A stretch of DNA of 49,992 nt from Candidatus Omnitrophota bacterium (GTDB lineage Bacteria > Omnitrophota > Gorgyraeia > JABMRN01 > RBG-13-46-9): assembly GCA_049642705.1 (NCBI GenBank), contig JBARPB010000068.1:1-49992 (forward strand), given 5' to 3'. Shown piece by piece: positions 24,069 to 49,992 of the stretch (position 1 is its first letter; each line of letters opens with the position of its first letter). The position numbers and the translations under genes were made by a program. Below the pieces are notes generated by a model that did no database searches, was not told the DNA's origin, and saw only the letters and a list, made by a program, of their open reading frames with translations.

Positions 24069-24140
24069 TTTAAACACCTTTTTAAATTTTCTAAGAAAGT
24101 AGTGAAAAAAAATATTCTCATTTTCACCATCAACGCTTTA

Positions 24141-27400: not shown

Positions 27401-27552
27401 ATCTTTATTCCATTTAAGATAACTCTTCCGTTAATCTTAATGACCGGCTTTGCCTGGTGCCATATGGGGGTTCCGCCCTGTGTCCAGCTTATATCATAAA
27501 ATAAAAAGGCAAATAGTAAGATAAATGCTATTGCCTTATACCAAGTTTTCAT
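24487..27552 (-). CDS. Signal-anchored 1,021-aa protein; stand-alone paralogue of the N-terminal ~640 aa of giant protein 1, with a unique Glu/Arg-rich C-terminal half
   Basis: ORF on the track. GAGGT lies 9 nt upstream of the ATG and the stop is TAA. The N-terminal hydrophobic helix is followed by the conserved GGTPIWHQAKP. There is long collinear similarity to the hand-translated 22000-23915 product. I recognised no domain in aa ~660-1021. Confidence 0.85.
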   Translation of the reverse strand: MKTWYKAIAFILLFAFLFYDISWTQGGTPIWHQAKPVIKINGRVILNGIKIPYDAGTPQEAFSTSGDEVVINIQDAHASLTAQYSIVKILENLASNYDLELIALEGAEGPVDISLLKTFPDPEIRKDIADYFIREGKMSAGEFFSIVSEKPIKLYGIENSQLYQANIDALNKLMEKKVVCLENIQGLLNTLKAIEPKVYSKDLLKLNKNSILHQEGNLAFTKHWDFVEKLAKRNNIEIVIFENLSKLLKSIELEKDIDFVKANEERKLLIDELSKVLPKRELEKLVLESLSFKKGKISQTEFQQYLIRLAQDIKLDPKPCSNLIKFTRYITIYEDIDLLVLFQEVEQFEDYIREKIFRNDEERTLYNLTKAVRTIDGLFKISLNNNDYDFIKAKKRYFDRTLISDFIKKNYAKHNLIFEHEYDLGIIFDNTEEAVEFYNIAQRRNKVMIANTIRVMKKHAEQFAALITGGFHSKGLASVMKEEGLSYLVVMPKFKEGEQRPYLAVLTNKRQPYEKLLDTEEYILSAPALCWTDTPEEILRGLFGAYGLAYLKGKPIELLVLEHREAFRKYLEVMEGLRRGEAHYKRPITLEQFDETFGVQVDEKGKAVGIEEGEGIVIRVARVDGKEVIVIRDYKEGRIEYQVALTRNEEGRLTLHEVVPEEAILKLREEEKTKAIGRRVTAELQKPTVERVKQLFGAEIGKLTPEQRKDREEILEAVITRMHYRAQQRGVSPAELKQQEKLSLFIRTLRSKKGYLISPKWLEQDEEFKGIVLSALGELPLLSVPALTPIASERLAELSIYNLRAEERVREHIAQEPLPLVVGHRIEEAKKGLIRATVYSLRELKTTAEMHRRRAKQFDLDIEAKLSEEELRVIKEAPRDWLEKMRIDDVVKAERLDLSEREAPPLNIKEAYERYRAEGYAPENILIIDKYRGLSEEEEAFLTAQEEEEKVVVVQYRDRITERVFDLALRLWARRFDVPDIPGVEIIKKGLLLYILPPMEKVDLDKLEREINRYREILMAV

Positions 27553-29922: not shown

Positions 29923-30171
29923 TCATTTCGACTTTAGTTTTTTTGTTATATATCTTTCGAGATTATTAAGCGTATCAAAGTTTTCCGGCATGATTTCCGG
30001 TACTTCTATCTTAATGCCGTATTTTTCCTGGATGAAGCTGGCAAGTTCGATAACACCTATGGAATCAATAATGCCTTTTTCAAGAAACGAGTCGCCGTCG
30101 TCCAAACGGGCGGAGTCGCTTTTGAGGTAATTAGAGATGATAAATCTCCTTAGCTCTTCTTTTATATGCAT
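29923..30171 (-). CDS. Acyl/peptidyl carrier protein (DltC-like ACP)
   Basis: 82 aa. LEKGIIDSIGVIELASFIQEKYGI contains the D-S-[IL] phosphopantetheine-attachment motif. The gene ends 1 nt before the ligase start codon. Confidence 0.8.
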   Translation of the reverse strand: MHIKEELRRFIISNYLKSDSARLDDGDSFLEKGIIDSIGVIELASFIQEKYGIKIEVPEIMPENFDTLNNLERYITKKLKSK

Positions 30172-31169: not shown

Positions 31170-32165
31170 TTATTTTTTTTCCGTCTTAACGAAATACGGA
31201 GCGAATGCCATTTTCTTAAAATATTCGGTATAAATCTCAGAGCCCTCTTTGTTCACGTGCGAAGGGTCTCCGAAATAACTGTTCTTCAGGTAAAGTATGG
31301 GTTTCCGGACAAAAAGCGATCTCGGGTATCTTATTTTCAGGCGCCTGAAAAACTTCCGGTAATCGTTGTCGAAATTGTTCTTTTCGAAAATGCCGTAAAG
31401 TTCCTCGGGAAGAAGGAACCCCAGGAAAATAACTTTGATGTTTTTCGAAGACGCGAGTTTCATGAGTTTGTCCAGGTATTCCGTGTCCCTTGCTGAAATT
31501 GAAATACCATCCTGTATGCGCCCTGTGTGAGTAGCAAAATAATCTCCGCTAATGGCATTGCCGGCACTTGGGGCAGGCATGAAACCGTGGTTTTTTATCA
31601 TCTTTTCCACGAAAACCTTGTTGGAATAAGGGTATTTGTCCCTTACGGTAAGTCCCACCTTTCGCAAATCGAGGCTCGCCCAGTATCTCGTGATAAAAAC
31701 CCGCCTTTCTTTCCAGGTCAAATCGTTCCAGATAGAGATAAATTCCGGAATGCTTACAAAATACCTGAGTATTGTAAAAAGGGAGTCGTGCGGGTCTTCG
31801 GGGTCAATATACAGGAATACGGCTTCCGGCGGGTTGTGCCTTTTCAGGTACCTTTTAAGCAAAAGATATAAACTCATCGGTTTTCCGCCCGGAAGGCCTA
31901 AATTCAAGATTTCTTTGTTAACGGCCGTGGGATTTATGCCTGTTTTCTGGATGCTGTCGCCTACGATGAGGTATTTGTAATTTTCCGGAAGGTCCAGCAA
32001 GGCGCGTTCGTTTATGAGGAACTTGTTCCAGTAATCTTCTATAAGCTCGGCCCTGTTGGCGTAGATAAACCATTCCGTCAGCAGAAAAAGCGTCGCCGCA
32101 ATTAAAAACGCCGCCGGTATTCTTTTAAAACTGGAAGTAGTAATATTTTTGCGCACTGAAGTCAC
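31170..32165 (-). CDS. Membrane-anchored SGNH/GDSL-like protein (DltD/AlgJ-like O-acyltransferase partner of the MBOAT)
   Basis: N-terminal TM helix (IPAAFLIAATLFLLTEWFIY), a GDS block (LIVGDSIQ) and a C-terminal D-x-x-H (GDPSHVNKEG). It lies immediately downstream of the MBOAT gene and overlaps it by 41 nt. Confidence 0.55.
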   Translation of the reverse strand: MTSVRKNITTSSFKRIPAAFLIAATLFLLTEWFIYANRAELIEDYWNKFLINERALLDLPENYKYLIVGDSIQKTGINPTAVNKEILNLGLPGGKPMSLYLLLKRYLKRHNPPEAVFLYIDPEDPHDSLFTILRYFVSIPEFISIWNDLTWKERRVFITRYWASLDLRKVGLTVRDKYPYSNKVFVEKMIKNHGFMPAPSAGNAISGDYFATHTGRIQDGISISARDTEYLDKLMKLASSKNIKVIFLGFLLPEELYGIFEKNNFDNDYRKFFRRLKIRYPRSLFVRKPILYLKNSYFGDPSHVNKEGSEIYTEYFKKMAFAPYFVKTEKK

Positions 32166-33561
32166 CGTACATTATTATCAAGTATAGCAGAACGTAATAA
32201 ACGGCCGCCCTCGCGAGGATAGGCCACTTGAATAGCGCGAGTTCGTCGTCTTTTCTGTATTGAAAAAATTCCACGAACAAAACGGGTAACGCAAGAAGCA
32301 GGAATAAAGTCGATATATAGGTGTTGAAATACGCGGGAGAGAAAAGCCCGGTGGCAATGCTGTGCAGGATCTCAAAAACCTGGGGAGTGGTCTCCGCGGC
32401 AAAAAATAAAATACCCACGGAGAAAAGATGAAACACGAGTAGGATCTTAAGCGTAAGCCAGATGCCTGAGAGGAAATTCTTCTCTTTTCCGCCAATCAAA
32501 AGAAGGTAAGGGCGTATGCGGCTATAGATAACGAGAATCACACCGTGGTAGACGCCCCACAGGACAAATTTCCACATCGCCCCGTGCCAGAGGCCCATTA
32601 TTGCCCATGTAATTATCACTACAATGGGGGCGCTTAGGCGCCTCCCGAAAAACTTCGCTAAAGCAAGGGGGTAATAGAGATATTCCTTTATCCATGTCGT
32701 CAGACTTATGTGCCACCTCTGCCAGAAGTCATAGAGGTTTGACGAGAAGAAAGGCACGCGGAAATTCACCATCAAGTTAAAGCCCAGGAGCTTTGCAAGC
32801 CCCCTTGCCATATTTGAATAGCCGGAGAAATCCGCGTAAACCTGAAACGCAAAAGCGTAAGTCGCAATAAGGGCGGCGCTCCCCGCGAAGGCACTGCCCC
32901 CGCGCCCAAACGCCATATCCGTTATCTTAGCGAGGTTATCGGCTATTACTATTTTTTTAAAAAGCCCCCAGAATATAAGCCAGCACCCGCCGTAAAATGC
33001 ATCCAGCGTAATATTTCTTTTATTGGCTATCTGGGGAATGAGGTTCCGCGCCCTCTCTATGGGACCCGCTACAAGCTGCGGGAAGAATGCGATAAAAAGG
33101 GCGAAATTAAAGAAGCGCCTCGTCGGCTTTATTACCCGCCGGTATATATCGATGGGGTAACTCATCGCCTGGAAGGTGTAAAAAGAGATACCGAGCGGCA
33201 GCACTATGCGTAAGGTAACCCTGCTTACCCGCCAGCCGAAACCCCAAAGAAGAATCTGTAGATTGTCTGCGAAAAAATTAAAGTATTTAAAGAAACCCAG
33301 CATGCCCAGGTTAAGGCATATGGCTATTACAAGGAAAATCTTACTCTTACGCCTGTCGGAGGCGCTGTTTATCTTAAGGCCCAGGTAATAGTTGAAAAAT
33401 GTCGATAGAATTATAAGGGAAAGAAACCGCCAGTCCCAGAAGGAATAGAATACGTAACTGGCAAGGAGAAGAAGCAGGTTCTGCCATTTGTGCTTCAGGC
33501 ACAGGTATAGGCCGTATACAATTAAGAAAAATAGCGCGAACTGAAGGGAATTAAATAACAT
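32125..33561 (-). CDS. MBOAT-family membrane O-acyltransferase (AlgI/DltB-like)
   Basis: Typical N-terminus MLFNSLQFALFFL. Polytopic. FWQRWHISLTTWIKEYLYYPL and GLWHG carry the conserved MBOAT histidines. Confidence 0.9.
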   Translation of the reverse strand: MLFNSLQFALFFLIVYGLYLCLKHKWQNLLLLLASYVFYSFWDWRFLSLIILSTFFNYYLGLKINSASDRRKSKIFLVIAICLNLGMLGFFKYFNFFADNLQILLWGFGWRVSRVTLRIVLPLGISFYTFQAMSYPIDIYRRVIKPTRRFFNFALFIAFFPQLVAGPIERARNLIPQIANKRNITLDAFYGGCWLIFWGLFKKIVIADNLAKITDMAFGRGGSAFAGSAALIATYAFAFQVYADFSGYSNMARGLAKLLGFNLMVNFRVPFFSSNLYDFWQRWHISLTTWIKEYLYYPLALAKFFGRRLSAPIVVIITWAIMGLWHGAMWKFVLWGVYHGVILVIYSRIRPYLLLIGGKEKNFLSGIWLTLKILLVFHLFSVGILFFAAETTPQVFEILHSIATGLFSPAYFNTYISTLFLLLALPVLFVEFFQYRKDDELALFKWPILARAAVYYVLLYLIIMYGDFSAQKYYYFQF

Positions 33562-33591: not shown

Positions 33592-33960
33592 TTATCTATC
33601 TTTTTTAAGCAGGTATTCGACTGTTTTGGCGAGCTTTTTTCTTTGTGTCTCAACGATGCTAATGAACTCAATGCCTATATTGAACCGGCGGAAACCCCAG
33701 GCAGAGCATATAGTAACGATTCTTACAACCCGGCCTTTTATGCCAATAGGTTCGCCTTCAGTGGGAAGAAAAAGTGAAAGATCCAGCATCTCCCCCAGGT
33801 TGGGGAGGTTGCTCGTCCTGATGAGCGCTCCGTGCCGGCTTATGTTGATGACAGGGACGGGTGTCCTTATATTCTTATCGAATATCCTGATTCTTATGCC
33901 GTCGTCAACGCGCGGGGACCTTCGTTTTTCCGTGCCTGTGTATTCCTGCATGGCTATCAC
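33592..33960 (-). CDS. PilZ-domain protein (candidate c-di-GMP receptor)
   Basis: RRSPR (the RxxxR motif) and NISRHG (the [DN]xSxxG motif) sit at canonical spacing. It is a paralogue of 34174-34476. The likelier start is Met4 (ATG at 33951), which has AGGTGA 6 nt upstream and aligns with the paralogue N-terminus MAQYTGTEKRRSPRV. Confidence 0.8.
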   Translation of the reverse strand: MIAMQEYTGTEKRRSPRVDDGIRIRIFDKNIRTPVPVINISRHGALIRTSNLPNLGEMLDLSLFLPTEGEPIGIKGRVVRIVTICSAWGFRRFNIGIEFISIVETQRKKLAKTVEYLLKKDR

Positions 33961-34011
33961 CTACTATAAAGTATACCATATTCCGCACATCCTATGGTAA
34001 CAATAATGTAA

Positions 34012-34140
34012 TTAATCCTCTTCGTCTTCATTTTCGTTTTCATCGGACATGATTCTGCATTCGCTTCCGCATTTGCATTTTGGCGTCTCGCAGGCGCTAT
34101 ATCCTATGAAACCGCAGTCTTCGCACCTAACCTTATACAC
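34012..34140 (-). CDS. 42-aa zinc-ribbon-like small protein with acidic tail (below the ORF-track size cutoff)
   Basis: Minus strand: AAAGGAGG (34156-34149), 8 nt, then a GTG start at 34140. Translation gives VYKVRCEDCGFIGYSACETPKCKCGSECRIMSDENENEDEED, ending in TAA at 34014-34012. Six Cys residues include a CxxC and a CxC pair. It sits between the two PilZ genes. Confidence 0.55.
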   Translation of the reverse strand: MYKVRCEDCGFIGYSACETPKCKCGSECRIMSDENENEDEED

Positions 34141-34173
34141 GGTTATCGCCTCCTTTGGTTTTTCTTTCTGGGG

Positions 34174-34476
34174 CTAAACTACGTTCAGAAATTCAATGCC
34201 AACGTTAAACTTGCAGAAACCCCAGGCGGAGCATGTTGTAACTGTTCTGATAACGCGCCCTTTTATGTCAATTGGTCTTGTCTCGCTTGGAAGATATACT
34301 GAAATATTTACTACTTCCTCGGGTTTAATAAAAGAGCGGCTTCTCAAAAGCGCCCCGTGGCGGCTTATGTTAAGGACAGAACCGATCTTTCGGATATGTT
34401 TTCCGGTTATTCTGGCCTTTGTGCCGTTGGGCACGCGTGGTGACCTCCGCTTTTCTGTGCCAGTGTACTGTGCCAT
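34174..34476 (-). CDS. PilZ-domain protein (candidate c-di-GMP receptor)
   Basis: RRSPR and NISRHG motifs. AAAAGGAGG lies 6 nt upstream of the ATG. The start is 16 nt downstream of the giant-gene stop codon (34495-34493). Confidence 0.8.
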   Translation of the reverse strand: MAQYTGTEKRRSPRVPNGTKARITGKHIRKIGSVLNISRHGALLRSRSFIKPEEVVNISVYLPSETRPIDIKGRVIRTVTTCSAWGFCKFNVGIEFLNVV

Positions 34477-34492
34477 GATTATCCTCCTTTTG

Positions 34493-37400
34493 TTATACGG
34501 CTGTTATCGTTTGCCTTATGGCTTTGAAGATTTCGGATAAGCCTTCGCTTATCTTTGTAATAACGCTGAAATATCCGCCTATTTTTTCTAGCAAGCTCTT
34601 TATGCTTCCAAATGCCGTCTTATCATAACCTATTCCGACAAAGCAAGGTTTCTCCCTTACAACGGTAAGCAGGAGATTGGCCATGTTAATTTGGGCATTT
34701 TCTTCTGCGCCTTCTTTCAACGCTACATAGCTTGCCATGCGTAATGGCGTATTCTCTTTAGCTCTTAGGTCTTCCAATATGACATCGTTGAGCGTGCTTT
34801 CTTCGCCTTTTAATGCTATTGCGATTTTCGCAATGTCTACATGGTCGCCGAGTTCTCTTTTTACAGCGTGTGCAATTCTGTCAGAGAGCGTGCCTTCTTC
34901 GGCTTCCGGAATGTATATTGCACCCGGAATTCGTTCTCCTATAACGGCAACCCTTATAAGTCCGCCTTCGGCTTTTGCCAGCCTTTCGGCGAGTTCTATT
35001 ACTGAGTCATCAACCGCGCTTTTATCGAATACAAGCACCTGCGCGCCCTGCAAAATGCCTGCCTGGTTTTCAAGGAAGACAAGCATGCTTTCCATCGAGA
35101 GTGCGCCTGTTTCCTCTATTTCCCGGGCAATACCCTTGAGATCTTCCATATCTTGGCCTGTTTTCAACCGCGGGCCTATGGCACCGATAGGAAGTGGTAT
35201 AGGCATTGAAAGAAGTTCGGCTTCCCGGCCCTTTTTTTCGAGCATCCTTCTTATTTGGTCGGTTGTCGGGGCCGCTTCTTCTTGTGCAATGCTGCGCTCG
35301 ATAGTAAGTTCGATGCCTTGTTTAATTCCTCTAAACGCAAAAGCTATGCTTAACATCGGTGATGCGATCCTTTCAACCCGGCCATCTCTCATTCTCTCTA
35401 TATTCATGGCCCTGACAAAGCTCACTATTCTTTCAATCTCTTCTGTAAATTGAGGAATGCTTGTGTCTATTACTTTAGCTTTAGTAGCACCTCTTTCGAA
35501 TATTATTTCCGGGAGTAACTTACCATAAATAACCTCTCTTACTCTCATTGCAAGCTTATCTTTATCGTTGACAGCTGATATTATCGGTTCTGAATGGCCA
35601 TGCGCTACTACCTCGACTTCTCCGCTGCGATAGCCGGTTATTGCTTCGCGGCTAAATATCTCGGAAGAGGTCATGGCTATGAGTTTACCTTCCTCGTTGA
35701 AGATGATACCCGCTTTATCGGAGAATATAGGCGGTTCCACAGTTCCGTCGCTTCGTTTTCTTACCTCGTATGATACTTCATAAGGAATGACTCCATCCGG
35801 GAATTCGGCCATAAGGGATTCAAAAGCCTCCTCTGTAAGATGCTGCTTTATAAGGTCTATTAGTTTCGTGCCGTCTTTTTCGGCTTTAAGGGTTATTTCT
35901 TTAGCTTCGAATTTAAGTGTGATAATCTGGCCTTTCCTTAATATACCTCTATGGCTTTCGTATACGCGCTCGGCTATCGGACGGGCTACCTGCTCGATAA
36001 CCGCATTTTCTACCCCCTGGGCTTCTAATGCTTTCCTTGCTTGTTCTTCTGCAGTTATGACTGCCTCTGCAACAGGTGTCGGTTGCACTTTTATACTTAC
36101 GCGTACTTCGTTAAATAGCTCGCTGACAACCCTTCTTGCCTGCTCGGTAGTCGGAGCATCCCGCCTTATAGCAGGATATGAGTGAACCGCTTTCTGCAAG
36201 GCAATATCAGAAACAAGCCTTTGGAATTTCTTAGGCCTCATCTCATATCCTAGCTCTTTACGTATACCTTCTAATGTTACTATCTGCAATATATGAGCCA
36301 GTTCATGCCCTTCGGCTTTTTGCATAAAGCGCGTCGTGCTCCATATAATCGGCGCGACAATGCCGTATCCGATGAGAGTTACCAAAATCCCTGGAACGAA
36401 ACCATGTATAGAGCTATAAGCCAGGCCAAACATCGCCCATGTTGCCATATGCGTTGGGTATAGTTTGCCTCTATTAGGCGAATACACGATCTCCGTAATC
36501 TTTTCATCCTTATCAAACTTCACCAATGTTGCAGGACCTATCTGCTGAGTAATGAAAGATAACAGATGCCCAACCAGTTCTGTGGCTGCAAAAACGGTCT
36601 TCTTCCTATCGAATTTTATTAACGAAGCAAAGAATGTTCTGGTAGCATCATAAATACCTCTTATCTTCTCTCTGTTAAATTCGGCGAGAGTAAGTTGTCT
36701 ATCCGAAATTTTAATGCCTTGTGCATCTGCCTGTGTTCTTACAAAAGTCTCAAATTCACCTATAGAGCCAAGGTGGCTTGTCACCTTGCTAGTCAGACCC
36801 TTCTCTATTTCCTCCAACTTCTGATGCAACGTAGCTGGTTCAGCTTTAGTTTGCGCAAGCAAACGTTCAAACTTGGCTAATTTATCCGAGTTCGACGCTA
36901 ATGCTTCTCTAATTATATCTGTTTGCATAAATAAGCCGGTCGTTACAAGGTATCCGACTAATTGCTCCGCTGTCATTGTTTCGGCACGCCTTGCTAAGTC
37001 GCGGGCGTCTAACCCACCACCCATTGGCGGGAGTGTTGTGGGCTCTGTTCTTCCAGTCCTTAAGACAATGTATTTTAATAGTGTTTCTATATCTTCATTT
37101 TTAATCACACCTGTTATTTTATATGTATTTAGGTTCACTAAAATATTCTCTAATCCATCGTTATGTATCATATGGTAATAATTCTTGAATATAGAAGCCG
37201 CATCTCTCGCTTCCAGTTTTCCGTTTAGTACCAGCTTTGGTAATGCGCTTATGATATTTGTCCTGTCGTTTATATTAAGGTATGGTAATATAGTTTGTAT
37301 AATATTGTCCCATGTAAATACTGTAATCGTGGGCCTGCCGGCTACTTGTATGCGGGATTCAAGGGCTGCTGAAATAAGGGATCTGGCTTCGGAAATAGTC

Positions 37401-40400
37401 AGTGCTTGTTTGCCAGTCTTCTGCATCATAGAAATAATATCGCCAGCCAGACTGCCAGGTATGGCACTATTCATTCTATAATAATTCCTTAATGTACCAG
37501 TACTATCTCTTTGCTTTTCCTTTGTCAGTAAGCCTATGCCTGCCAGCGATTCAAGGTCTCTGTCAAGTTCGGCTAATTTATCCGGGTTCGACGCTAATGC
37601 TTCTCTGATTATACCTGCCTGCGTAAATAAGCCGGTCGTTACGAGGTAACCGACTAATTGCTCTGCAGTCATTGTTTCGGCACGCTCTGCCAAGTCACGC
37701 GCGTCCAGCCCTCCGCCCATCGGCGGAAGTTCGGTGGATTTTTGCGCTTTAAGGCTAAACATGGCATATAAAATATCTGCGACGCGCGGGAATTTGGCTC
37801 TAAAACCTTCCCTATCGGCAGCACTCAATGCAATCACCTGAGCAATTGCTTCATGTAGTATGTCATCGCCGCGCCGTTCTCCTGGTAGTCTTAGTTTTTC
37901 CATGCGGAATTTTGCCGCCTGGACTTCATTTGGGTCATCCAATCCAAAACCTGCTGCCACAATTTCTTGAATTGCTCGATCCGTCGCACCTTGTCTAATC
38001 AACGAAGTTATATTATATTCTTCATCAATGACATGCCCAACTTCATGAGCAATTATAATCTGTTTATCATTGCCAAACCGTGGTGTTTCACGTAACGATA
38101 TAAGCCTGCGCTTTATATCAACTCTTGCGTCAACAGGAAGCCCGCCGACTTTTAATACTTCTTCATTGATTTTGTCCCATTCTTCATTGCTTACAACTTG
38201 TATCTTCACGCCAAACTCAGCAGCTAACTCTTCACCGAATTTCACAGTTCTGCTAACCTCCGATGGCTGTTCCTCGACGACGGCCGGCTTCGCGGCTTCT
38301 CCGGCGGCTTTTTCGGCTCGTTCTCTCGCAGAGCCTTTGTGCGCCAAAAGTGCTTTTATTTCCGGCGAGAGCGAGAGCTTGGTTCCATCTGGCCTGATTC
38401 CACTTGTAATATCTGCTAACTTGTAATAATTCCTATCGTGCCTTTCTTTTGTCAATATGCCTTCATTTACTAAACGATTGAGGTCTCGCAAAACAGTGCT
38501 GTACGCGGGCGCGTTGCCTTCGGCGGCCTGCGCTTTAAATACCTCGCCCAGTATCTTCTGCGCTGTGTATTCTTCCGTTTCTCCTACGAAGAACGTCACT
38601 ATCATCTCTTCCCTTGTGGCTCTATTTAAGGTCGTGGGTTTTTTGGCAACTTTTTCGGGTTCGGCGGTCGCTGTCTCGACTCTATTTGCTTCTTCAGCAT
38701 CTCCTTGCGCGTATTCTTTTATCCTTTCCCTCGCTTCCTTCGCTGCAATTCTTACTTCTTCCTCTCCTCGTATTCTACGATTTTGTTTTAACAACCTTAT
38801 AACTTCATCAAGTGTTGTGGCTGTTTCTATCTTATATGCCAATGCCTTAATGTAATATTCTCTAACTTTGCCTATCGCCTCTTTTACCTCTCGCCTATCC
38901 CTGACGCTCTTGAACCCTTCCTGCGTTAAATAATTATATGCCGCATCCAAGGTCGGCGCGTTATAGATTAGGGGTATCAATCTGTTTACATCCGCATCGC
39001 CTCTTAACGCGGCTCGTTCCTCTGCCGCATTTTGCTTCTGCCATAAATTAATTGAATCAATCTTGTCCTTCATGTATCTTACAAAATCTTCATTTTCACT
39101 GATTTTCGGATTAAGCTTAAGAAGCATTTCATACTTACTCCGTGCTTCTTCAAAATCTCTCTTTGCATCCTCTAATTTTCCGCTTTTAAGCGCTTCGTTC
39201 GCTCTGTCAAAAGCCGTAATAACCTCTTTTTCTAATTGTTCTAGTTTAGGCGCTATAGGTTCCATTTCAAGCTGTTTGTATATCTCATCCAGCTCTGCAA
39301 GCGTTTCTTTTCTTTGTCGTTCGAAATCTTTTGATTTGATTCTCCCCAGTTTAGCCTGGATCTTTTTTCTTGTTTCTTTATTTAAATTCGGCCCACCCAG
39401 GGCTTTTTCATAAGCACTTGCCATGTTTGCCGCCGTTTCTGCTTGATTTAGTCTTCTTAAAACACTGTCTAATGCCGTTGATATCTTTATTACGCGTCTT
39501 GCTTCTTTCGGTTTTATATCGCCGGAGGCAAGCTGCCTTTTGACTCGCTCAAGGTCAGCCAGAGCAAGCTTTACAGCTTTTCTTTGGTCAATATCACCTA
39601 TTCCTTTGTTGAGATCTTCTATTAGATTATCTAGGGCATTGTCTACTTTTCTTGCCACTGAAAGTGCATTTATTACTTTCGTTTTCAGCGTAGATAAAGT
39701 GGAAGGTTTTCTCGCTTTGCCCTTAATTAGCATTACGAGAGACATCATAATTCCGGCACTTACTATGTTTCCCGTCGCCATTGCGGAAGTGCCGGTTAGT
39801 CCAAAAATACCTGTGGCCAGCAATCCGCCAAAGGTTACAAATCCTGCGCCTGCAAGCCACCCCACCACAGGTATCGCAAGTAATGATAACAACGCGCCGG
39901 CTGCAACAGCCTTCTTTACGCTCTCGCCCACTGACGGGGAAATAACCCTTTCTTCCACAAATGTCTTTCCGAGGTCTTCCAATACAAATGTATTCTCGTT
40001 TCTATATCCTATTACAATATAGTGGCCGCTAATAGGCATTACAAAAATATCCTTGCTATTTATGATATTTTCCAATTCCTGCCTGTTTTCCGCGAAGTAA
40101 CTTTCTAATGCTTCTGCGGTATCTATGGGGAGCTTGTATTCGTCTTGTATGCCTGCTAATTTCAGCGTTGCCGTATTCGCGGCTCTATCGCGGTTTGTTA
40201 TTCGTATCGGAGCGGTTTCTTTCCGTCTTTGTTCGGCTTTTGCTTCATTTACAGCCTGAGATACATCTACTTTCCTGACTTCTCTTTGGGCCACCGCAGA
40301 ATCCGCTCTTTCTACTGCCTGCGCCTGGGCTGTACGCACCAATGTCTGCACCATGCGCGGCCCGAACAACCTGCTGTAGGCCCGATCCAGCATTCCGGGT

Positions 40401-43400
40401 TTGTGCTCTTTGACGGGTTTTATTTCAAGCTCTGCCAGATGCGAAGTAATCGACTTTTCTGCCTGCGATATAGATTCCCTTACGCTCTCTTCGCTTAATG
40501 ATTCCGCCTTAGACTCCCTTGCTATCGCCAGTTTATTCGCTACCTTATCCGTAAAGTTTTCCATTACATCCTTGAAGGATGCAATCATCTTTCCGGCGTA
40601 TTTTCTAAATCTAACTTCTCTGCGTAGCTTTCTTGAGTTTGCCAGGAACTCAACCCACATATCATCGATAGACTGGGTTACGATATTCATGAGATCGGCC
40701 TGCGAAACGTTCTTAATCACGGATTGCAGGATAACCTGCGCTAATCCGTTATTATCAAGGCTCCTTATAGAATCTTCTGTAATGCCTTCGAGCGAAATGC
40801 TGAATCTTGACTTAATTGCCCCTAACATGTCCTTAAAGTTAAATTCTGCTTTTTGATCTCTGTATTTCTCTACGAGTTTCAATGTGGCTGTTTCTAAGAT
40901 GCTATCGATTGTAATCTCACGGGATTTTCCGCCAAGTATCGCGTTTCTCAATTCGTGGTATGACTTCTGCATCCTGTATTCAAATGTGTTAAACCTGGCG
41001 GCGGAAGCCCTCATCCTGAGTTCGGCTTTATCTATATTATCCTGGGCTTTCCTGGTTGACTTTCTTATGTATCTCGTTGCCTTTCTTATGTAATTTCTTT
41101 GGGAATCCGTTAACTCACGTCCTTCTTCAAGGGCCTGCTTTATTTCTTTAAGGGCCGGTTTTATTTTTAATATCCTCTCATACCTGCTTTTAATGAGTAT
41201 GTTTATGAGTATGTTTCCACCGCGATATATACCGTTTTTGTAAGCTAAACCTCTCTCGAGCATGGCAAGATCCGCTCCTTCGAGCGACATAACTGACCAC
41301 GCTTCGCCAGGGTTATCCTGACGCGCCACCCTGCCGTCTGCCTGCCTGTCAATTCTTCGTGATTTATTAACTTCTCTTATTAGCTGCAATCCGAATACAT
41401 AGGTAGTAAATACCATATTCATAAGTTCGGGTGCTTCTATTCCTTGTCTCTTAAAGAAATCTCTTACCTCTTTCGCCTTTTCTTTCATCGCTTTGGGATT
41501 TCTGTTTTCATTAAGCCTGTCAATTAATTTGCCCAGTTCCTGCTTTTGCGCCGGGGTTAGCACACGGGATGCCTCTTCCAGTATCTGACTCCTGCCGGGC
41601 AGTTTAATATCGGTGGCGCGGCCTGCTATATTAGTCGCGATGGTCACCATGCCGGGTGTACCGGCTGTTTCAACTATCGCTTCTTCGTTCCATTCTAACG
41701 ATGCGTCAAGAAGCTGCATGTGCTCGGCATCCACTATGCCTTCGCTTATTAATATCCTGTGGAACGCTTTCGCGTCATCCATATTTCTGAACGTAACAAG
41801 TATGGGTGCACCCGGTCTCGTATTCCTTATTTCATATATCTTATTCTTTATATATTCAACCTTTTCTCTGCCCGTCAGAACGATTTCGGTAAGATTGTCT
41901 TTTCTCAAGCTTTCAGAGTGAGGAGGCATCCTGACCACTTCTCTATTAAAGAGTTTCCTTAGTTCTTTCTCCGCTTCCATGACGGTTCCGCTGCAGCCGC
42001 TGAAGTGTTTGTATTCGTTTACTAAGAGGTCTCTTATGCTCATCTTGGCTATGGTCTTGTATTCTCCGTGTATATCGAGTCCTTCTTTTGCCTCTACTGC
42101 CTGCGCAAGGCCGTCTTCCCAGCGTTGTCCCTCTAAATCGCGGCCAGTTGCCTCGCTTACGATTATAAGTTTGCGCTTTCCGTCTTTTTCCGTTTCGATT
42201 CTGTACTGTATATCTTCGTGGTAAAGAAGGTGTGCTTCAAGGGCTCTTTGTATATGATGTTCTTCCAGATTTGTCATATTTTTCATTACGCCCTCATGCC
42301 TAATCGCCTGTATCAATCTACCGACAGCCTTTTTACCTTCTTCCTTAAGCGTAAGAGTTCTTGTGGTCCTGTTTAAACTATAATATTCGTTAGTTTCTAA
42401 TTTTTGCGTTATGCCGCCTACATCTTTTAATGTAACTTTTACCTCCCCGCCTTCAGGACGGATTCGCCTTGCTATCTTATCGGCAATTATATATACGGCG
42501 GCCTCGCCGGCGCTGAGTGGTTCGCCTGCGCCTTCTGAAAGAATACATTCGGATAGCGCCTGGTCCAACGTTATGTTATCTATTTCGTCTACGTTAGCGT
42601 AATTGAGTTCTCTCGTAATATATTTTTCTTCTTCCCGATGTGTTCTTAAGTCGTGTAGTTTATCAAACCTAACTGTTGTGTTCGCGACATAAACTACATC
42701 CGCACTATATGCCTTCCTCTTAGCTTCCAGTATTTTCTCTCCCCTGTTTTCCGCGTCTTCGGATATACCCATATCTCTTGTTACAAAGCTTGGCTCTATG
42801 CCTAACATATCAAAGATTGGTTTTGTCTCATTGAAATCCCGCTCGGCAAGGAAGTCCGCCGTAACAAGCTGGTGCGCACTTTTACCGGTTAAGGCATGCA
42901 GATAGAGCGCGAGCACGCTCGTTAAGGTCTTACCTTCGCCTGTTCCCATCTGAATGATTATCTCCTCAGCAAGTAGTTTTCCCGCGTATGACTGTTCTTT
43001 GTGCGGCGCGAATCCATACCCGTCTGCTAATAGGGTTGCCAGTATGAAGGCGCTTGTTGCGTCTAATACCACCGCTTTCCTCTGCATGCGGCCTCTAAGG
43101 TTACTGGTTATCTGTTCAGGTATCTTACTCAGGGCCTCTCTTATAGCTTTGCCTCTTTCGGACTTAAGGCTTATGCCCTGGTTATTTAGCGCTTTTTCAA
43201 AGGTTACTTTTTCTTTTTGTCCTTCTTTGGAAAGAACTCTTTCGATAGCACTTATCGCAACGCCGGCATCTTCCGGAAGTAGGTTTTGCCTTATATGAGT
43301 AAAGAGGTTGCTGTTGGCAGCGGCGTGGTTTTTCTTGAGGGCTTTCCTCACCGCTTGCTCTCTGCCAAACCATCTTACTTTTATCCTGTTTATCTGTCCT

Positions 43401-46400
43401 ATTACGAAGCTTCTTATCCTCTGCACGGTTGACATATCTGACTTGAGTAGTTTGAAGGTCATCTCGTCTACTGTAGTGGCTCTTCCGCTCTTTGTTTGCA
43501 ACCTGTTCAGTTTGTCGCAGAGCCTGGCGTTTGTAATGAGATTCGCATACTGTGTTCCCAGTTTGCGCAGGAAAGCCTCCCCTACCGCATGGTCTAATGA
43601 ACCGTTTTCAATAAGCTTTTCCGCGATGGGTATTATTCTCTCCAGCATCTTGGCTCTTTCAGCGAATACTGCCCTTGCCTGTCTTAACGCCTTGCCCTTA
43701 TCTTCTGTTCTTCTGAATGTCTGTATGCCAAGTGTATTCAAGCTATTTACAATATACTGAGCGTTATTCGGAGTAGAAGCGAGTTTTTCTACATTGGCCA
43801 TTTTCGCCGCTACCATTTTGGCTATTTCATTTACGGATATTTCTTTTTGTGCATTATTTAATCGTATTCCGAACGCTCTAAATAAAGTCCTTAACCGTTT
43901 GGTAATCTTTAGGCTGCCGTTTTCTATTCTCACCATGCCTTTCGGATCTTTTACTTTTGCTTCAAGCGCCATTCTGACGGCTTTAGCATTCATGGGCGTA
44001 ATGCCGTAAATCGCGAATACCGCCAGTTGCGTATAACTCATGTATGGCAGGCTCTCTCCGAGTGACTGAATCGCGGATAATGTTTCAGGTGTTAAATTTC
44101 TTAATAGTATATTTGGCCTGCCTTGTAAGAACTCCTGCATGAGCGAATAATCGGAACTTAGCGGCATCGCAAGCTCGTTCATTAATTTCGTTACTTCTGA
44201 AGAATCCATTTTTGCAAGTTTGTCGAGCCTGTAATGGCGCATAATAAGGCCTGCTTCACCGTACTTTTCCTTGTTTGCGGTGCTTACAATTATGGAATTC
44301 TTCAGCATGTTATTTATGTTGATCTTGTTCAGATTGTTGAATAGAGAACCCGATACGAAACCTGCGCCTAAAAGGTGCTCGCCGATTGTATTTGTGTCCT
44401 TTTCTGTCAAATTCTTGAAGTCATGAGCGGTCGGATTGATGCCCAATTGCGCTAAAGCCGGCAGTATTGCTTCAATGTTGCCCCGTGCATTCGCAAACAG
44501 GGCGCCCATTACGATTCTCTTCATATGGAACCCTATATCCTGCTGTCTCAAGGTTCCCAGGTTCTGCGAAAATGCCTGTGCTATGTCGGTCTTTGCATCA
44601 TGGGCAAGAGCCGGGTCGATAGTTTGCAAAATAGCAATACCGTTTACTATCGCGTCTATCGCTTCCTGTTTCCAACCCAGGCCTTGATAGGTTGGCATTT
44701 TTAACCGCGCCATTTCAATATTTAGCGCGCCTTGTCTCTCCAATAATTCTCCTTTGATTTCTGTTAATTTAGATTCTATCCCATTTATAGCAACAGCGAT
44801 AGCATCCCATGGCGCAGGACCGCTTTGCTCAATTTGAGCTATTAAACTGTCTATGTGCTCTAAGGTTCTCCTTAGGGTTAAATTATATCGGAAGCGGGCT
44901 TCTGTCTGGTATTGTGATTCTGCGGCGCCTTTCGGTGCATAAGTTAGCTCTTCTATTCGGTTCTTTATGCGTTCTCGCAGCTGCGGAAGGTTGGCTTGTT
45001 CTTGCTTATCTCTTAATTGGTTTTCCAGTATTGATATTTCCTGTTTAAGTTGCACGATTTCATTTTGAATTTCTGCAATCCTTGGAGGCGCGCGGTCGCC
45101 GAGGTTTAGCATATTCATGGTACCTTTTGAATCAACCGCATGGTCTATTACTGCGCTGATTACAACTCTTATAAATTCTCCTCCGGAAGTAGCAAGGTTA
45201 TTACCTATTTCGGTGATAATCAATCGCTTGGCTTGTTCGTTGGAATTCGAAAGAATTGCCAATAGGTGCCTCTCTCCCTTAGATAAACCGAGCGAAGTAA
45301 GGACATCTAAAACCGAATCGGTTATAACTCCGCCTGAGAACGCAATTACAACGCCCCTCGCTGTCTGTTTCGCTTTTGTGCTTATATCTCCGGGGGTATT
45401 TAAACCTATTTGATTAAACAGCATTTTCCCTGTTTTTACCAAGGCGTCATTATTGCTTTCGAATAGTTTGTTTAACGCGGCCGCATCGGCTTCATAAATA
45501 CCGAATGTAGTTAAGTTTTCTGCGCTGCCGTTCATAAGTTGTGTGGACAAAGCGAGCTCTTCTACGGCAGGTTTTAATGTAGCTTCCGAAATTCTTCCCG
45601 TCATTGCCAGATATCTCAGATTTGATAAGAGATGCCCGTCGTTTATCTGGACTTGAGACAACCCCATGTTCTCGAGGGCTTTTATATCCCAGTTATTGAC
45701 TACATTTATAAGCTTCGCATTTTGTTTTGTAAAGTTCTTGATAGACTGCGTAACTTCTAACAACCCGACTTGTTCAAGGTTTGATTTTATGCTGGAATTG
45801 GTTATATCGGCATTTGCTAATTGGTTCGTTAGGATATTCACTTCCTGCTGAGTGGCCGTGCCTTCCTGCACCCTGCCTACCGTACCTATGTCAATACCAG
45901 CATCCTGCAGGGCCCATCTTTGGTTCGTGTTGGAAAGGTTTATTTTGCTTGCAGCTTTTTCGACAGTTCCCCTTGCAATGTTCTTGCTCGTATTGCTGAA
46001 GCTCGATCCAAAACTAACATCGCCGAATTCAACGAGGTATTCGGCGGTTGCGGGAGATACGCCGAATGCCTGCAAAATGGCACTTAGTATCGGCTCTTTA
46101 ATTCCTTCTTCCCAGATGCCCTTAATTGACCCTAATTTGAAGAACCGTTTTGCGAACCTTCCGACCCAAGCCGGGAATTTGACTATAACGTTTTTGAACC
46201 CGGCCCCTATCCTCACAGCGGCAAATCCTACAGGATTTCCAATCATTTTCCCTATCCCCAATGTTTCCACGATTTTGCCGCCTATTTTGCCTAAAAATTT
46301 CCCTGCAGCCAGAGCAAATATTTGGATAAACGGCCCTAATGCGAAGAACACTATTACAAACATCGGGTTTCTTACGGTTGTGTTCATCATGCCGTCCAGT

Positions 46401-49400
46401 ACGCTGCCTTTTTCAACAACAAACTTATTCGGCACGACCTGGCTGACATTCCATCCAAAGCTCGCCAGGGTCATCCATATAGTTCTTCCGAGCCCTTCCG
46501 GTCTTTGCGCCAGTGTATTCATTAGATCCGTAGGATTATCAGCGCCAAACCACAGCATGAGAACAGGAGTTATCGCCGCTCTGCCCGTGATCCACAGCGA
46601 GGCTCCAAACCATCCTATTTGAATCGTGGTTCTAACCAGCGCCAGCGTAGCGCCTTTTATGGTCAGGTATTGTGCCACCGCGCTGTGGCCCGCAAATATC
46701 GCCTTAAGAGCCGAACCTCTAAAGAAGAGGTGGGCTTTGCTAACAAAGTTATAAATTGCGTTGGCCAACTTTGCCTTCAAGCCTGCTCCGGAAATAAGCT
46801 CTTTCGCTATTCCAGTAAGCGCCGCATTAATTTTACCCGCAATCGCGGCCACGCCTTTTCCGAGGACACAAGCGGCGATAACCATACCTACTATTTCTAT
46901 AGCGTCTCCCCAGGTATAACCTCTCCAGAACTCCGCTCCGATATAGGTGCTTTTCTCGTGGACTCTGAACGCATCACCTATGCCTCCTATTCCGAGAGAA
47001 AGGCCTCTTACAAGAGCGGTAAATCCATTTGCTATTTCAAAAACAACTCTGCCAAAATCTGATTTTTCTGCCCACACCGCCATCGTATCCATTAACGCAT
47101 GTCCGGCTGTGTATTGATATCCAAAAGCAGTGTTTGGCTTATCGATTACTACGTTTCCTTCTTTATCTATATGGCCGGATCCGTTCGAACCTGCATATTG
47201 AACAAGAGATACAACAACTCCGACTATCGCGCCAACTACTGCACCTATTGCAAATCCTATCAAAGTACCGATAAAAGGAGTGATGCATGTTCCTATGATG
47301 CCCCCGAGCACTGCTAATGTTCCGGCAAATGTTCCGACATTCGCCAACACGCCATCGGTAGTCATGCCTCTTGCAACCAGCTTCTTATCCAAGTCCTTAA
47401 ACGCGCCGAACGCCGAAGCAATAACTCCGCCAATTACTCCTACAGCCAATCCGATAGCAGCACCTACAGCTGCTCCTACCAACGCTCCAACTCCGAAGAA
47501 CCAGACTCCGATAGCAGCTCCGATTACGGCGCCCGTTGCGCCGCATGTAGCAGTTCCTACCGCGGCATTTCTGTCCATGAATCCAAGGTCAAATGCGCCT
47601 CCTGCGATAAGCCCGACTATCGCGCCGACTATTGCGCCTATTCCCGTACCGATAACCGGTATAACGCTTCCTATAGCAGCGCCTATTGCTGCTCCGCCAA
47701 GAACCCCCGTTGCTGTGCCTTTGATTTTGATTACGCTTGTATCTGCAAGAATGCCAAGTAATAATCCGATGCCGGCGCCGATTATAGCTCCGATTGCCGT
47801 CCCAATAACCGGGAAAACGCTACCTATTAAAGCACCAAGCGCCGCACCACCCGCTACACCGGTCAAGCTGCCTTTTATTTTACCAAAGATACCAAGATCC
47901 ACTGATACACCTGCTATAAGACCGACTATTGCGCCTACGAGTGCGCCTATTGCCGTGCCTACGCCTGGTATAATACTTCCTACTAAAGCACCCAATGCTG
48001 CTCCACCTGCTACGCCTCCTATGCTGCCTTTTATTTTACCGAGGGCCCCTGTGTCGTAGAGAATTCCTCCTGTCAGTCCCACAACTGCTCCTATAGCAGC
48101 GCCTATCGCTGCTCCTACTAAAGCCCCAACGCCAAAGAACCATACTCCGATAGCGGCTCCTATTGCTGCACCTGCTGCTGCACCGCCTGCCACACCGACT
48201 CCGCTACCTACAATTCCCATGGACTTTAGGTCTTTTACTGCATCTCCTGCAACGCCTATTACGGCGTCCAATATCTCAGAGGCAACGAAGGCAAAGAGAA
48301 TGCCCACTATTGGCGCGTACTCTTTTACAAAGTTCCACGCCCTGCCTGCGGCATCCTTAATATTGTCCCACTGCCAGATTATAAGTTCGGAGATGCCCAG
48401 GGTTACTATACCGAGGCATACCCTTCCTATTGTTGAAGCGTTTTCCTTTACAAAGCCCCACGCCCTGCCTGCCATGTCTTTTATATTATCCCATTGCCAT
48501 CTGATAAGTTCTGAGATACCCAGGGTTACTATACCGAGGCATACCCTTCCTATCGTCGAGGCGTTTTCCTTTACAAAGCCCCACGCCCTGCCTGCCATGT
48601 CTTTTATGTTATCCCACTGCCAGATTATAAGTTCGGAGATGCCCAGGGTTACTATACCGAGGTAGACTCTTCCTATTGTTGAAGAGTTTTCCTTTACAAA
48701 GTTCCACGCGATACCAAAACCTTCTGCCATGGCGGCTGTAAAGCTCTGGTGTGTTCTGGCGTACTCAGCGGCAAAAGATTTCGCCTGTTGATGGCTAAAA
48801 CCAAAAAGCCTGCTCATAGCATAAGCCGTGCCATAATTTGTACCGTACCATACCGCGCTTGCTCCGGCTTTTATGTTATCCCATTGCCATATTATAAGTT
48901 CGGAAATACCCAGGGTTGTTATAGCAAGGTAGATTCTGCCCACTATTGGCGCGTATTCTTTTACAAAGTTCCATGCCCTGCCTGCGGCGTCTTTTATGTT
49001 ATCCCATTGCCATATTATAAGCTCAGAGATGCCCAGGGTTGCTATGCCTACGTAAACTCTGCCCACTGTTTTTAATATCTCTTTTTCTGAATCTTGCTTA
49101 CCTAACTCTACGGCAGCATTCCAAGCTGTTTCTTCGTCAAAAGAAACAACACCTGCTTTTCCTCCCCACCACTTTAAGCCATACTGAAGAGCGGCGCGAA
49201 GACCTATTTTCTTAAGCTGCCCCCAGGTTGTACTGTCAGGGTGATTCTTTGCAAGTTGCGTCATTTCATTCAATCCTAAGGCTGCGTCAGGAATTCCCTG
49301 GACACCTGTAACTTTGATAATTTTGTGATCGAGTCCTGTTTTTTCTGCAAACTTGAAAATTTCGCCATTTATCGCAGCTCCTTCTACACCCACAAGCTGC

Positions 49401-49992
49401 TTAAGGCTCGTTGGGTCAAGGCTTAAATGGCCGCCTGGAATATGAACTATCGGCTCGCCTTTTTCGTCTAATCTGAAAGATGAAACATTTGCTGTTTCGC
49501 CGTCTTTAGTCCTTAGTTGACAATCTATAAGAAAAACGTTTTTCGCATCAACACCCGTTTGCTCAGATACCGCTTTGAGATGCGCAGCCATTTCTTCGAT
49601 ATCTGCGTAAGTGCCATTTGCAGCGAACGCTTGTTGTTCTTCTTCCACTCCATCACTAGTGTAGGTCTTTGTCACTACCTTAAAAACTCCTCCTTCGAAA
49701 TAGGTGTAATCTATGCGGGTTACTACGGTTTTTCCGGTTAATCTGTTGAATCCCGCACCTATTACGAAGATGACCTTTCCGCTTAGGTCTTGGACGGCGA
49801 ATGTGAGGGACTCTAATGCCTTGCCCATACCTATGAATGCAAGGCCTTCTGTGAACTTGGCGAATGCCGCTATGCCTCCTGCGCCCGAGAAGTCGTGTTT
49901 TATTGCTTCTGCTCTTATCTGGGTTATCTGCGCATCTGTTAGATTTAATGCGCCTTGTGCGCTGTCGTATATGTTTTCTCTTCCTATTAAGG
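34493..49992 (-). CDS. Giant membrane-associated protein with embedded SecA-like motor (>=5,166 codons; probably 5'-partial)
   Basis: The track lists 34493-49828 (5,111 aa) from the first ATG. I translated 49829-49992 in the same frame and it stays open and protein-like (...[60 protein letters not shown]). No convincing SD precedes ATG 49828, so the true start is probably beyond the right edge. The stop is TAA. Confidence 0.85.
   Translation of the reverse strand, partial: [5165 protein letters not shown]
36293..36307 (-). other. HEXXH motif 2 (HELAH, aa 4508-4512) immediately after two hydrophobic helices
   Basis: [54 protein letters not shown]. This suggests a membrane-proximal zincin-like site. 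The family is unassigned. Confidence 0.4.
36875..37033 (-). repeat. Internal 159-nt duplication, copy B (encodes [35 protein letters not shown]...[10 protein letters not shown])
   Basis: See copy A. Confidence 0.8.
37571..37729 (-). repeat. Internal 159-nt duplication, copy A (encodes [35 protein letters not shown]...[10 protein letters not shown])
   Basis: Collinear with 36875-37033, with about 25 mismatches in 159 nt by my hand alignment. The copies are 696 nt (232 codons) apart and in frame. Confidence 0.8.
38033..38047 (-). other. HEXXH zinc-metallopeptidase motif 1 (HEVGH, aa 3928-3932)
   Basis: [15 protein letters not shown] read from the track protein and located on the DNA (atgcccaacttcatg). 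The surrounding family is unassigned. Confidence 0.45.
38412..38620 (-). other. Winged-helix-like module (first of three ...NYY[KRH][LM] units)
   Basis: [28 protein letters not shown]...[31 protein letters not shown] resembles MarR/ArsR-type wHTH (recognition helix, then a G.L wing). Related endings recur: [20 protein letters not shown] and [22 protein letters not shown]. By eye only. Confidence 0.35.
39725..39915 (-). other. Cluster of about 3 transmembrane helices C-terminal to the SecA-like region
   Basis: [64 protein letters not shown]. Confidence 0.6.
40520..43010 (-). other. Nearly full-length SecA-like translocase ATPase region (NBD1, PPXD, NBD2, helical scaffold), aa ~2274-3100 of the giant protein
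   Basis: Motif-for-motif match to E. coli SecA as I recall it:
- [41 protein letters not shown] versus [41 protein letters not shown] (Walker A at 42926-42946)
- [15 protein letters not shown] versus YALVDEVDSILIDEA
- [40 protein letters not shown]...FSGCSGTV versus [40 protein letters not shown]...LAGMTGTA
- [16 protein letters not shown] versus VTIATNMAGRGTDIVL
- [32 protein letters not shown] versus [31 protein letters not shown]
- [26 protein letters not shown] versus [26 protein letters not shown]. Confidence 0.85.
47215..48215 (-). other. Array of glycine-zipper (GxxxG/AxxxG) transmembrane hairpin repeats, about 5-6 units of ~52 aa
   Basis: Example: [52 protein letters not shown], repeated three times. 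Two units containing [17 protein letters not shown][IV]GAAIG flank these, and a further [20 protein letters not shown] unit follows. The composition matches glycine-zipper 2TM-type domains. Confidence 0.7.
48303..49068 (-). repeat. Five in-frame copies of a 41-aa (123-nt) hydrophobic repeat (2 + ~55-aa spacer + 3)
   Basis: The protein unit is GRAW[NG]FVKE[YN]A..[IV]GR[VI].LGI.[8 protein letters not shown][IR]WQWDNIKD.A. By my hand alignment, adjacent DNA units 48418-48540 and 48541-48663 differ at about 11 of 123 positions. Confidence 0.85.

Follow-up and report, generated by a model that had tools for sequence, protein, structure and literature searches.

Few known proteins are as large as the giant proteins of the Omnitrophota, whose function and control have yet to be explained. 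Among the systems to which their neighborhood can be compared, PilZ proteins of the MapZ type are expected to act by cyclic di-GMP (c-di-GMP)-dependent docking on a partner enzyme, glycan synthases have c-di-GMP-gated components in Alg44 and BcsA, and the alginate and cellulose operons include MBOAT acetylases. The closest described system comes from the phylum itself: according to West-Roberts et al. 2023 (bioRxiv 10.1101/2023.11.21.568195, section 11, Fig. 7C), most Omnitrophota giants immediately precede at least one small pilZ homologue, so a pilZ gene behind a giant is not in itself new. Here we describe a site of this kind in a 1.26-Mb, 93%-complete genome of a Candidatus Omnitrophota bacterium (G000), in which a giant gene with SecA domains (giant gene B) is followed by a cassette of three small genes, i.e. 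a first pilZ gene (PilZ-A), a gene for a 42-amino-acid (aa) zinc ribbon, and a second pilZ gene (PilZ-B). The window, by which we mean the whole stretch of DNA analyzed, is the entire 49,992-bp contig C68, and all of its supported genes lie on the minus strand. At 1.26 Mb and with several ORFs (open reading frames) of more than 5,000 codons, the genome suits this phylum. The cassette is a lineage-specific variant of the published pattern and leaves the general picture unchanged; the additions to that pattern are modest, namely a zinc-ribbon family and a slot for HD-GYP-type and PilZ genes past a defined giant C-terminal domain.

The likeness to the published system lies in a giant multi-transmembrane gene with SecA_DEAD and SecA_PP_bind domains that is directly followed by single-domain pilZ genes. 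Pfam matches in the open reading frame (ORF) of giant gene B comprise SecA_DEAD (2.4e-46), SecA_PP_bind (6e-17), P-loop_SecA, and SecA_SW, and these four domains bear out the SecA-containing giant that an earlier reading, made from the letters alone (hereafter the sequence-only reading), had proposed. Set against what the 2023 preprint describes, the locus differs in having a zinc ribbon between two pilZ genes, in the lack of a C-terminal helix in one of the two PilZ proteins, and in the absence of a GGDEF domain (Pfam) from the visible parts of giant B and of a second giant, giant A. Downstream, it has a Dlt-like MBOAT O-acylation operon and giant gene A, in contrast to the carbohydrate importers with solute-binding proteins reported there. 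The parts of that preprint examined here mention neither a zinc ribbon, nor HD-GYP genes in the slot, nor the C-terminal domain. PilZ goes unmentioned in a 2026 preprint that deals with complete Omnitrophota genomes (bioRxiv 10.64898/2026.06.07.730766), and a literature search for PilZ with a zinc ribbon returned nothing relevant.

Both PilZ proteins exceed the gathering score of Pfam PF07238 (22.5 bits), with 39.7 bits for PilZ-A (E 6.5e-10) and 54.0 bits for PilZ-B (E 2.2e-14), and both are also recovered in a six-frame search of the genome. They are 57% identical over 100 aa without a gap, and each carries RRSPR (RxxxR) and NISRHG ([DN]xSxxG), so that the intact motifs and the paralogy seen by the sequence-only reading hold under the profile search. 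Residues R10, S12, R14, S38, and G41 are invariant across 11 members of the PilZ family (alignment A1). An AlphaFold2 (AF2) model of PilZ-B (mean predicted local distance difference test score, pLDDT, 75.6) has a six-stranded barrel and a C-terminal helix at residues 101–118, and all 19 of its Foldseek matches in the PDB at E <= 0.001 are PilZ domains, most of them solved with c-di-GMP. The top matches are the Alg44 PilZ domain with c-di-GMP (4xrn and 4rt0; E 2e-5, TM-score 0.71), followed by MrkH, MotI, YcgR, and MapZ-CheR1; little separates the PilZ structures in rank (E 2e-5 to 1e-3), and the first place of Alg44 therefore has no specific meaning. A PDB sequence search with the PilZ profile gives no match. 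For PilZ-A the fold is taken from the gap-free alignment to PilZ-B up to residue 100. Judged by profile, motifs, and model, both are true PilZ domains and predicted c-di-GMP receptors. The ratio of nonsynonymous to synonymous substitution rates (dN/dS) of PilZ-B against its orthologues is 0.18–0.24, and the gene is thus under purifying selection. With regard to the signal, the genome has a complete c-di-GMP repertoire in view of its size, with 7 GGDEF, 0 EAL, 4 HD_5 (HD-GYP type), and 8 PilZ genes; the GGDEF genes enable it to make c-di-GMP, which it probably degrades through the 4 HD-GYP-type genes.

The cassette stands directly behind giant gene B. The TAA stop of the giant (34493–34495) is followed by CAAAA-GGAGG-ATAATC-ATG, in which GGAGG begins 5 nucleotides (nt) past the stop; the sequence-only reading had given this distance, and direct reading of the letters returns the same value. 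That reading had also placed the giant stop, the two pilZ genes, and the Cys-rich 42-aa ORF correctly, on the minus strand. The successive gaps measure 16, 33, 60 (51 to an upstream GTG), and 30 nt, the last from PilZ-B to the MBOAT gene. Each small gene has its own Shine-Dalgarno sequence, i.e. AAGGAGG, 6 nt, and ATG for PilZ-A, AAGGAGG 8 nt ahead of the GTG start for the zinc ribbon, and AGGTGA, 5 nt, and ATG for PilZ-B. This last ATG, at 33951, is the likely start of PilZ-B and lies 525 nt beyond that of PilZ-A. No terminator-like site is found on the minus (coding) strand inside the cassette, and this, together with the 16-nt gap and its Shine-Dalgarno sequence, agrees with the proposed coupling to the 3′ end of the giant. 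One strong promoter-like site (33598–33570, 10/12) lies just ahead of the MBOAT gene, in a region where such sites are not above chance. An Rfam scan of the window reveals no c-di-GMP riboswitch and no other family.

The upstream partner that stays constant across lineages is the C-terminus of the giant. The C-terminal domain of giant B aligns with giants of genomes G002, G007, G012, and G006 and of loci L066 and L069, and a search with a profile (A4) built from their final ~240 aa turns up this domain again in other families, where it closes giants whose length runs from 7,873 to 11,542 codons; a PDB sequence search with the profile of this domain gives no match. Genes of c-di-GMP signaling stand directly past a giant-B-type C-terminus in 6 of the 14 lineages with visible downstream sequence, while PilZ, GGDEF, and HD-GYP genes together make up ~1–2% of the genome's genes, a purely descriptive comparison, as the lineage counts are not phylogenetically independent. 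Specifically, the slot is taken by a PilZ gene in G000, G006, and the L066 and L069 groups, by a GAF-HD_5 gene in G012/G003 (with PilZ next in G003), and by an HD_5 gene followed by an A-type giant in G037. An A-type giant follows directly in G002, G316, and G335, and unrelated genes do so in G007, G350, G454, G304, and G054. The genes further downstream vary (MBOAT, Polysacc_synt, PMT_2, or another giant) and the giant C-terminus ahead of them does not. The tandem of a B-type and then an A-type giant is thus a conserved architecture, and the gap inside it is a variable slot that c-di-GMP genes often occupy.

Within this architecture, the tandem giants (window 34493–35275; L117, L119, and L113) show an A4-type end, ~200–800 nt, and then a giant-A-type N-terminus in G002, G316, and G335. 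The gap from B to A in G000 is ~10 kb and holds the PilZ genes, the zinc ribbon, the Dlt-like operon, a TPM gene, and a paralogue of the giant-A N-terminus. The HD_5 (HD-GYP-type) slot genes are found at L122 (G037:C41) 771–1442, L115 (G003:C100) 1136–2616, and L062 (G012) 6199–7230. An 822-aa ORF of L062 (G012:C1, 3714–6182) joins a fragment of a DegT/DnrJ aminotransferase (residues 21–113 only) to a giant-B-type C-terminal domain (49% identity); in this closed genome, a large deletion seems to have produced the chimera.

Comparison with close relatives indicates how the cassette arose. A word-based search returns five PilZ-B orthologues with 74–79% identity, and on their contigs a single PilZ gene lies 75 nt past giant ORFs of at least 2,751 and at least 4,554 codons, with no zinc ribbon; these giants resemble giant B only over the last ~500 aa (23–28% identity). 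With the narrower PilZ alignment, the search for related loci returns 1 genome locus and 3 metagenome loci. In L066 and L069, the spacer between giant stop and PilZ is homologous to the 60 nt between the zinc-ribbon stop and PilZ-B (DNA alignment A5). Because of this homology, the ancestral unit is giant, spacer (~75 nt), and PilZ-B, with MBOAT next in line at least in the lineage of G000 and L066; and because the spacer alignment marks the site, PilZ-A and the zinc ribbon are an insertion, found in this genome only, that separates the giant stop from the ancestral spacer. In genome G006, of another genus in the same family, the gene behind a SecA-giant homologue is a PilZ gene too, though a more distant one. 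The sequence-only reading had expected a cassette conserved beside homologous giants, and this stands for one of its parts: metagenome contigs and a further genus also show PilZ behind a homologous giant C-terminus, so that PilZ is not absent beside such giants. The three-gene cassette is not conserved, since close relatives have a single PilZ and no zinc ribbon, and G002 has no PilZ there at all.

Past the PilZ-B orthologue of L066 (8724–8819) we find a 13-aa remnant of an MBOAT start (MLFNPLQFALFFL, then a stop), with a truncated Polysacc_synt ORF ~100 nt further on. This is the trace that the acylation operon left when it was deleted or replaced.

The reading we favor, with a probability of roughly 45%, is that c-di-GMP-loaded PilZ-B, and perhaps PilZ-A, docks on a cytoplasmic part of giant protein B, and that the cassette is co-transcribed with giant gene B. 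The cassette would then be this genome's version of the published small pilZ genes right downstream of Omnitrophota giants, with all three small genes on the transcript of giant B and PilZ-A translationally coupled to it. The PilZ proteins, once loaded with c-di-GMP, would serve as cytoplasmic adaptors that dock on the C-terminal alpha/beta domain of the giant or on its SecA-like motor, and docking would tune the activity or the membrane insertion of the giant protein. PilZ-B may signal through its C-terminal helix, while PilZ-A, which lacks the helix, may be a variant or competing receptor. The zinc-ribbon protein, as a displaced member of a family from two-component/helix-turn-helix (HTH) blocks, may contribute to this layer of control as a small partner. 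MapZ (PA4608), solved with CheR1 (5xly, 5y4r), offers the model for such docking: like PilZ-B it is a free-standing PilZ protein of ~120 aa with a barrel and a C-terminal helix (E 4e-4). PilZ-B differs from it in sequence (~20% identity, and no sequence-level match in the PDB) and has no CheR-like gene nearby. Of the potential clients that the sequence-only reading had named (the SecA-fused giant, the MBOAT pathway, and the GT2-containing giant), none is singled out by these results.

The constant partner of PilZ is a ~230-aa C-terminal domain common to otherwise unrelated giants, which offers a concrete fragment for assays of c-di-GMP-dependent binding. The presence of HD-GYP-type phosphodiesterase genes in the same slot also suggests local c-di-GMP signaling that goes beyond a single receptor.

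Several observations weigh against docking on the giant, in addition to the dependence among lineage counts given above. In G002, a 96%-complete genome of the same genus, ~780 nt separate the giant-B homologue from the giant-A homologue that comes next, and both PilZ and the MBOAT operon are missing. A homologous giant C-terminus without a c-di-GMP gene behind it is found in G002, G007 (where PMT_2 genes follow the giant), G316, and G335, and the link between PilZ and giant is therefore facultative. The closest PilZ relatives of G006, G008, and G009 stand behind a UvrD-like helicase; those of G006 and G008 are single-domain proteins and the closest to PilZ-A and PilZ-B (44–51% identity), and that of G009 is a 330-aa PilZ-containing protein. 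Because the closest relatives stand in this second conserved context, the PilZ clade is not tied to giants alone. A cytoplasmic site for the giant C-terminal domain is suggested by one observation only, the DegT-fragment fusion in G012. Lastly, PilZ-A, with its atypical codon usage and shortened end, may be decaying.

Indeed, the two PilZ proteins are paralogues, as the sequence-only reading had it, but they are not equivalent. PilZ-A ends at residue 100, right past the last barrel strand, and lacks the C-terminal helix that is present in every other family member of alignment A1. Its TAG stop aligns with a Gln (CAG) that is conserved in the orthologues, and the codons past it (PQKEKPKEAITVY) retain a likeness to the helix that was lost (QKEKLTETVNY in P0003). 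The codon-usage score of PilZ-A is 0.061 vs a gene mean of 0.21, and its dN/dS against relatives is about 0.1–0.2, at saturated synonymous divergence (dS). The Foldseek matches include PA0012 (8u0i), an 85-aa helix-less PilZ protein solved with c-di-GMP bound, and a 100-aa PilZ-A is therefore plausible as a c-di-GMP binder. The PilZ phylogeny is poorly resolved: the PilZ-B orthologue group is its only supported group, PilZ-A falls outside it, and the tree is too weak to decide whether the giant-linked PilZ genes form one clade. PilZ-B is the ancestral giant-linked copy and PilZ-A a helix-less extra that came with the zinc ribbon. A search for PilZ-A orthologues among 5.8 billion proteins, with the product of reading through the TAG as query, returns PilZ-B-type proteins only. 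Recoding of TAG was considered and rejected, since 180 of the genome's 857 long ORFs (21%) end in TAG, which makes it an ordinary stop.

The zinc-ribbon gene lacks a match above threshold in Pfam and NCBIfam, and a word-based search with the 42-aa protein returns the query itself only. The codon score of the ORF is 0.205, like that of a typical gene, and is reached by only 0.1% of off-frame windows; the AF2 single-sequence model (pLDDT 77) has fold matches that are all zinc ribbons, none of them significant. The family came to light only when 401 sampled genomes of the phylum were searched in six frames, which gave homologues of 39–83 aa with the consensus MxKV[KR]CxxCGxxGYTA[AS]PxxVxC(x)xCGG..VI. 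A family hidden Markov model (HMM) built from 9 relatives, with the window sequence excluded, has this ORF as its single match in the genome's 22,542 ORFs (E 2.9e-8), and columns C6, C9, C23, and C25 (CxxC ... CxC) are invariant in alignment A3. By these criteria the gene is real, as a short and divergent member of its family. An exhaustive phmmer search with the 42-aa protein adds one marginal match, P0010, of 85 aa with two tandem copies of a similar motif (CxRCGWSG...PRCKC), possibly a distant duplicated relative.

The family occurs in 17 of the 401 sampled Omnitrophota genomes, and was not found in other sampled genomes of the source genome's taxonomic family. At 14 of the 16 loci of relatives, the zinc ribbon stands beside a divergent XRE-like HTH gene with CheY receivers, usually followed by a small protein of 79–92 aa, and in at least 4 loci that block immediately precedes the gene for a giant, or for a large membrane protein, whose N-terminus is of the giant-A type. 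The order of the block is a histidine-kinase-like membrane protein, several CheY, an XRE-like HTH protein (192–230 aa), a 60–74-aa protein, the zinc ribbon (62–83 aa), and the 79–92-aa protein, which starts MKVIVKIK..NP..FLV; three small block proteins were tested and have no Pfam match. The block is present in several Omnitrophota families (L086 1115–3834, L087 7233–9728, L088 4300–5931, L089 9138–10407, L090 8038–9592, and L091 5509–6818). Homologues of its HTH or small partner proteins were not found in the genome studied here, where the neighbors of the zinc ribbon are the two pilZ genes. Because the usual partners are absent, the zinc ribbon of the window is best seen as a displaced member of a giant-gene-associated family, i.e. 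a small family without a Pfam match that is linked to giant genes. A bolder and distinctly unlikely extension is that this family is an undescribed small regulator dedicated to giants, which was captured here between PilZ receptors. Its in-frame pairing with PilZ-A would then be a Rosetta-stone hint that c-di-GMP-loaded PilZ acts through the zinc ribbon, and, taken with the HD-GYP genes that other lineages have in this slot, the gap between giants B and A would be a dedicated node at which c-di-GMP controls how giant proteins are produced or assembled.

Of the competing explanations, the one that survives best holds that the PilZ proteins have no local client, with the gap between giants as a recombination-prone slot that gathers unrelated genes, the PilZ proteins as general c-di-GMP effectors that act elsewhere, and PilZ-A as a decaying duplicate. 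A conserved giant tandem whose short gaps in G002, G316, and G335 compare with ~10 kb of mixed cargo in G000 would fit this, as would the absence of the cassette from the same-genus genome, the shortened PilZ-A with its low codon score, a zinc ribbon without its usual HTH and small-protein partners, and the occurrence of the same PilZ clade in other contexts (after UvrD, next to TypA). We consider it somewhat unlikely, in view of the share of lineages with c-di-GMP genes in the slot (6 of 14, vs ~1–2% of the genome's genes), the purifying selection on PilZ-B together with its conserved spacer, and the phylum-wide pattern that West-Roberts et al. 2023 report.

A second explanation is that the PilZ proteins serve envelope glycans and gate either the MBOAT/carrier-protein O-acylation operon or a glycan-synthase module of giant A, as the PilZ domains of Alg44 or BcsA do. 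The genes downstream of PilZ speak both for and against it. PilZ-B lies 30 nt upstream of a DltB-like MBOAT gene, and the junction is old, as the 13-aa remnant in L066 attests, but the same locus lost its MBOAT and kept its PilZ, and the promoter-like site of the window precedes the MBOAT gene. A related PilZ precedes two PMT_2 (ArnT-like) genes in G023; across lineages, however, what stands downstream differs (MBOAT, truncated Polysacc_synt, PMT_2, or nothing), whereas the giant C-terminus is constant. Alg44 and BcsA are c-di-GMP-gated, and MBOAT acetylases belong to the alginate and cellulose operons, so that the Alg44 PilZ domain (4rt0, 4xrn), as best structural match of PilZ-B at TM-score 0.71, and the nearby MBOAT acyltransferase would suit a glycan role; against this, the flat Foldseek ranking makes that match unspecific, and Pfam finds no GT2 domain in giant A at E <= 0.001. 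Moreover, Alg44 and BcsA carry PilZ within a membrane component of the synthase, whereas PilZ-A and PilZ-B are free-standing, single-domain proteins with no fusion partner. We regard a glycan client as unlikely.

Finally, it is very improbable that PilZ-A and the zinc ribbon form one 154-aa fusion whose TAG would reflect a misassembly, a recently acquired nonsense mutation, or translational read-through: the two ORFs share a frame with that single TAG between them, 11 codons ahead of the GTG, at a conserved Gln position with helix-like codons beyond, but a shared frame has a 1 in 3 chance anyway, and we judge the two not fused because the zinc-ribbon ORF begins where its family does (MYKVKC in G316, MYKVRC here) and has a perfect Shine-Dalgarno sequence 8 nt ahead of its GTG, TAG is an ordinary stop in this genome, and no natural fusion of PilZ and a zinc ribbon is found among the 5.8 billion proteins searched with the read-through product.

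The layout of the window around the cassette is given in Table 1. The MBOAT protein matches TIGR04091 (dltB) at 2e-46, under the cut-off of that model. The 1,021-aa protein between the TPM gene and giant gene A (24487–27552) is a paralogue of the giant-A N-terminus (21990–24077), and both match the same region of the giant-A homologue of G002 (L064 7379–9817) with about 65% identity.

Table 1. Features of the window in their order along the minus strand
Feature	Position	Strand	Size and remarks
Giant gene B, 3′ part	34493..49990, open at contig end	-	at least 5,165 codons; SecA domains; conserved ~230-aa C-terminal domain
Junction of giant B stop and PilZ-A start	34477..34492	-	16 nt; contains Shine-Dalgarno AAGGAGG
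PilZ-A	34174..34476	-	100-aa single-domain PilZ; begins MAQYTGTEKRRSPRV
Zinc-ribbon gene	34012..34140	-	42 aa; MYKVRCEDCGFIGYSACETPKCKCGSECRIM and acidic tail
Conserved spacer	33952..34011	-	AATTACATTxTTGTTACCA ... GGTATACTT ... GGTGAT ... ATG
PilZ-B	33592..33951	-	119-aa single-domain PilZ; within ORF 33592-33960; MQEYTGTEKRRSPRV
MBOAT (DltB-like)	32125..33561	-	opens the downstream carrier-protein O-acylation operon; PF03062 5.5e-14
DUF1574/DltD-like protein, then WbuX-like PP-loop enzyme	after MBOAT	-	
Carrier protein	29923-30171	-	82 aa
AMP-ligase, then TPM protein	after carrier protein	-	
1,021-aa protein	24487-27552	-	between TPM protein and giant gene A
Giant gene A	24077 to beyond 3	-	at least 8,025 codons

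PilZ genes also cluster elsewhere in the same genome. Contig C35 (2114–4783; L001 and L004) carries, in this order, a PilZ gene, a 107-aa ORF, a 74-aa zinc finger (CxxC...CxxxC), two more PilZ genes, and DUF4416, with an HD-GYP-type gene ~10 kb away on the same contig. Homology between the zinc ribbon of the window and this zinc finger was considered and rejected, the C35 protein being unmatched by the zinc-ribbon family HMM. The PilZ genes flanking it are distant paralogues of those in the window, which has no DUF4416 or radical-SAM genes. The pair of a UvrD-like helicase (671 aa where complete) and a following PilZ-domain gene is found in three genera of the same taxonomic family (L045 7551–10312, L018 2–1475, and L053 1–3358).

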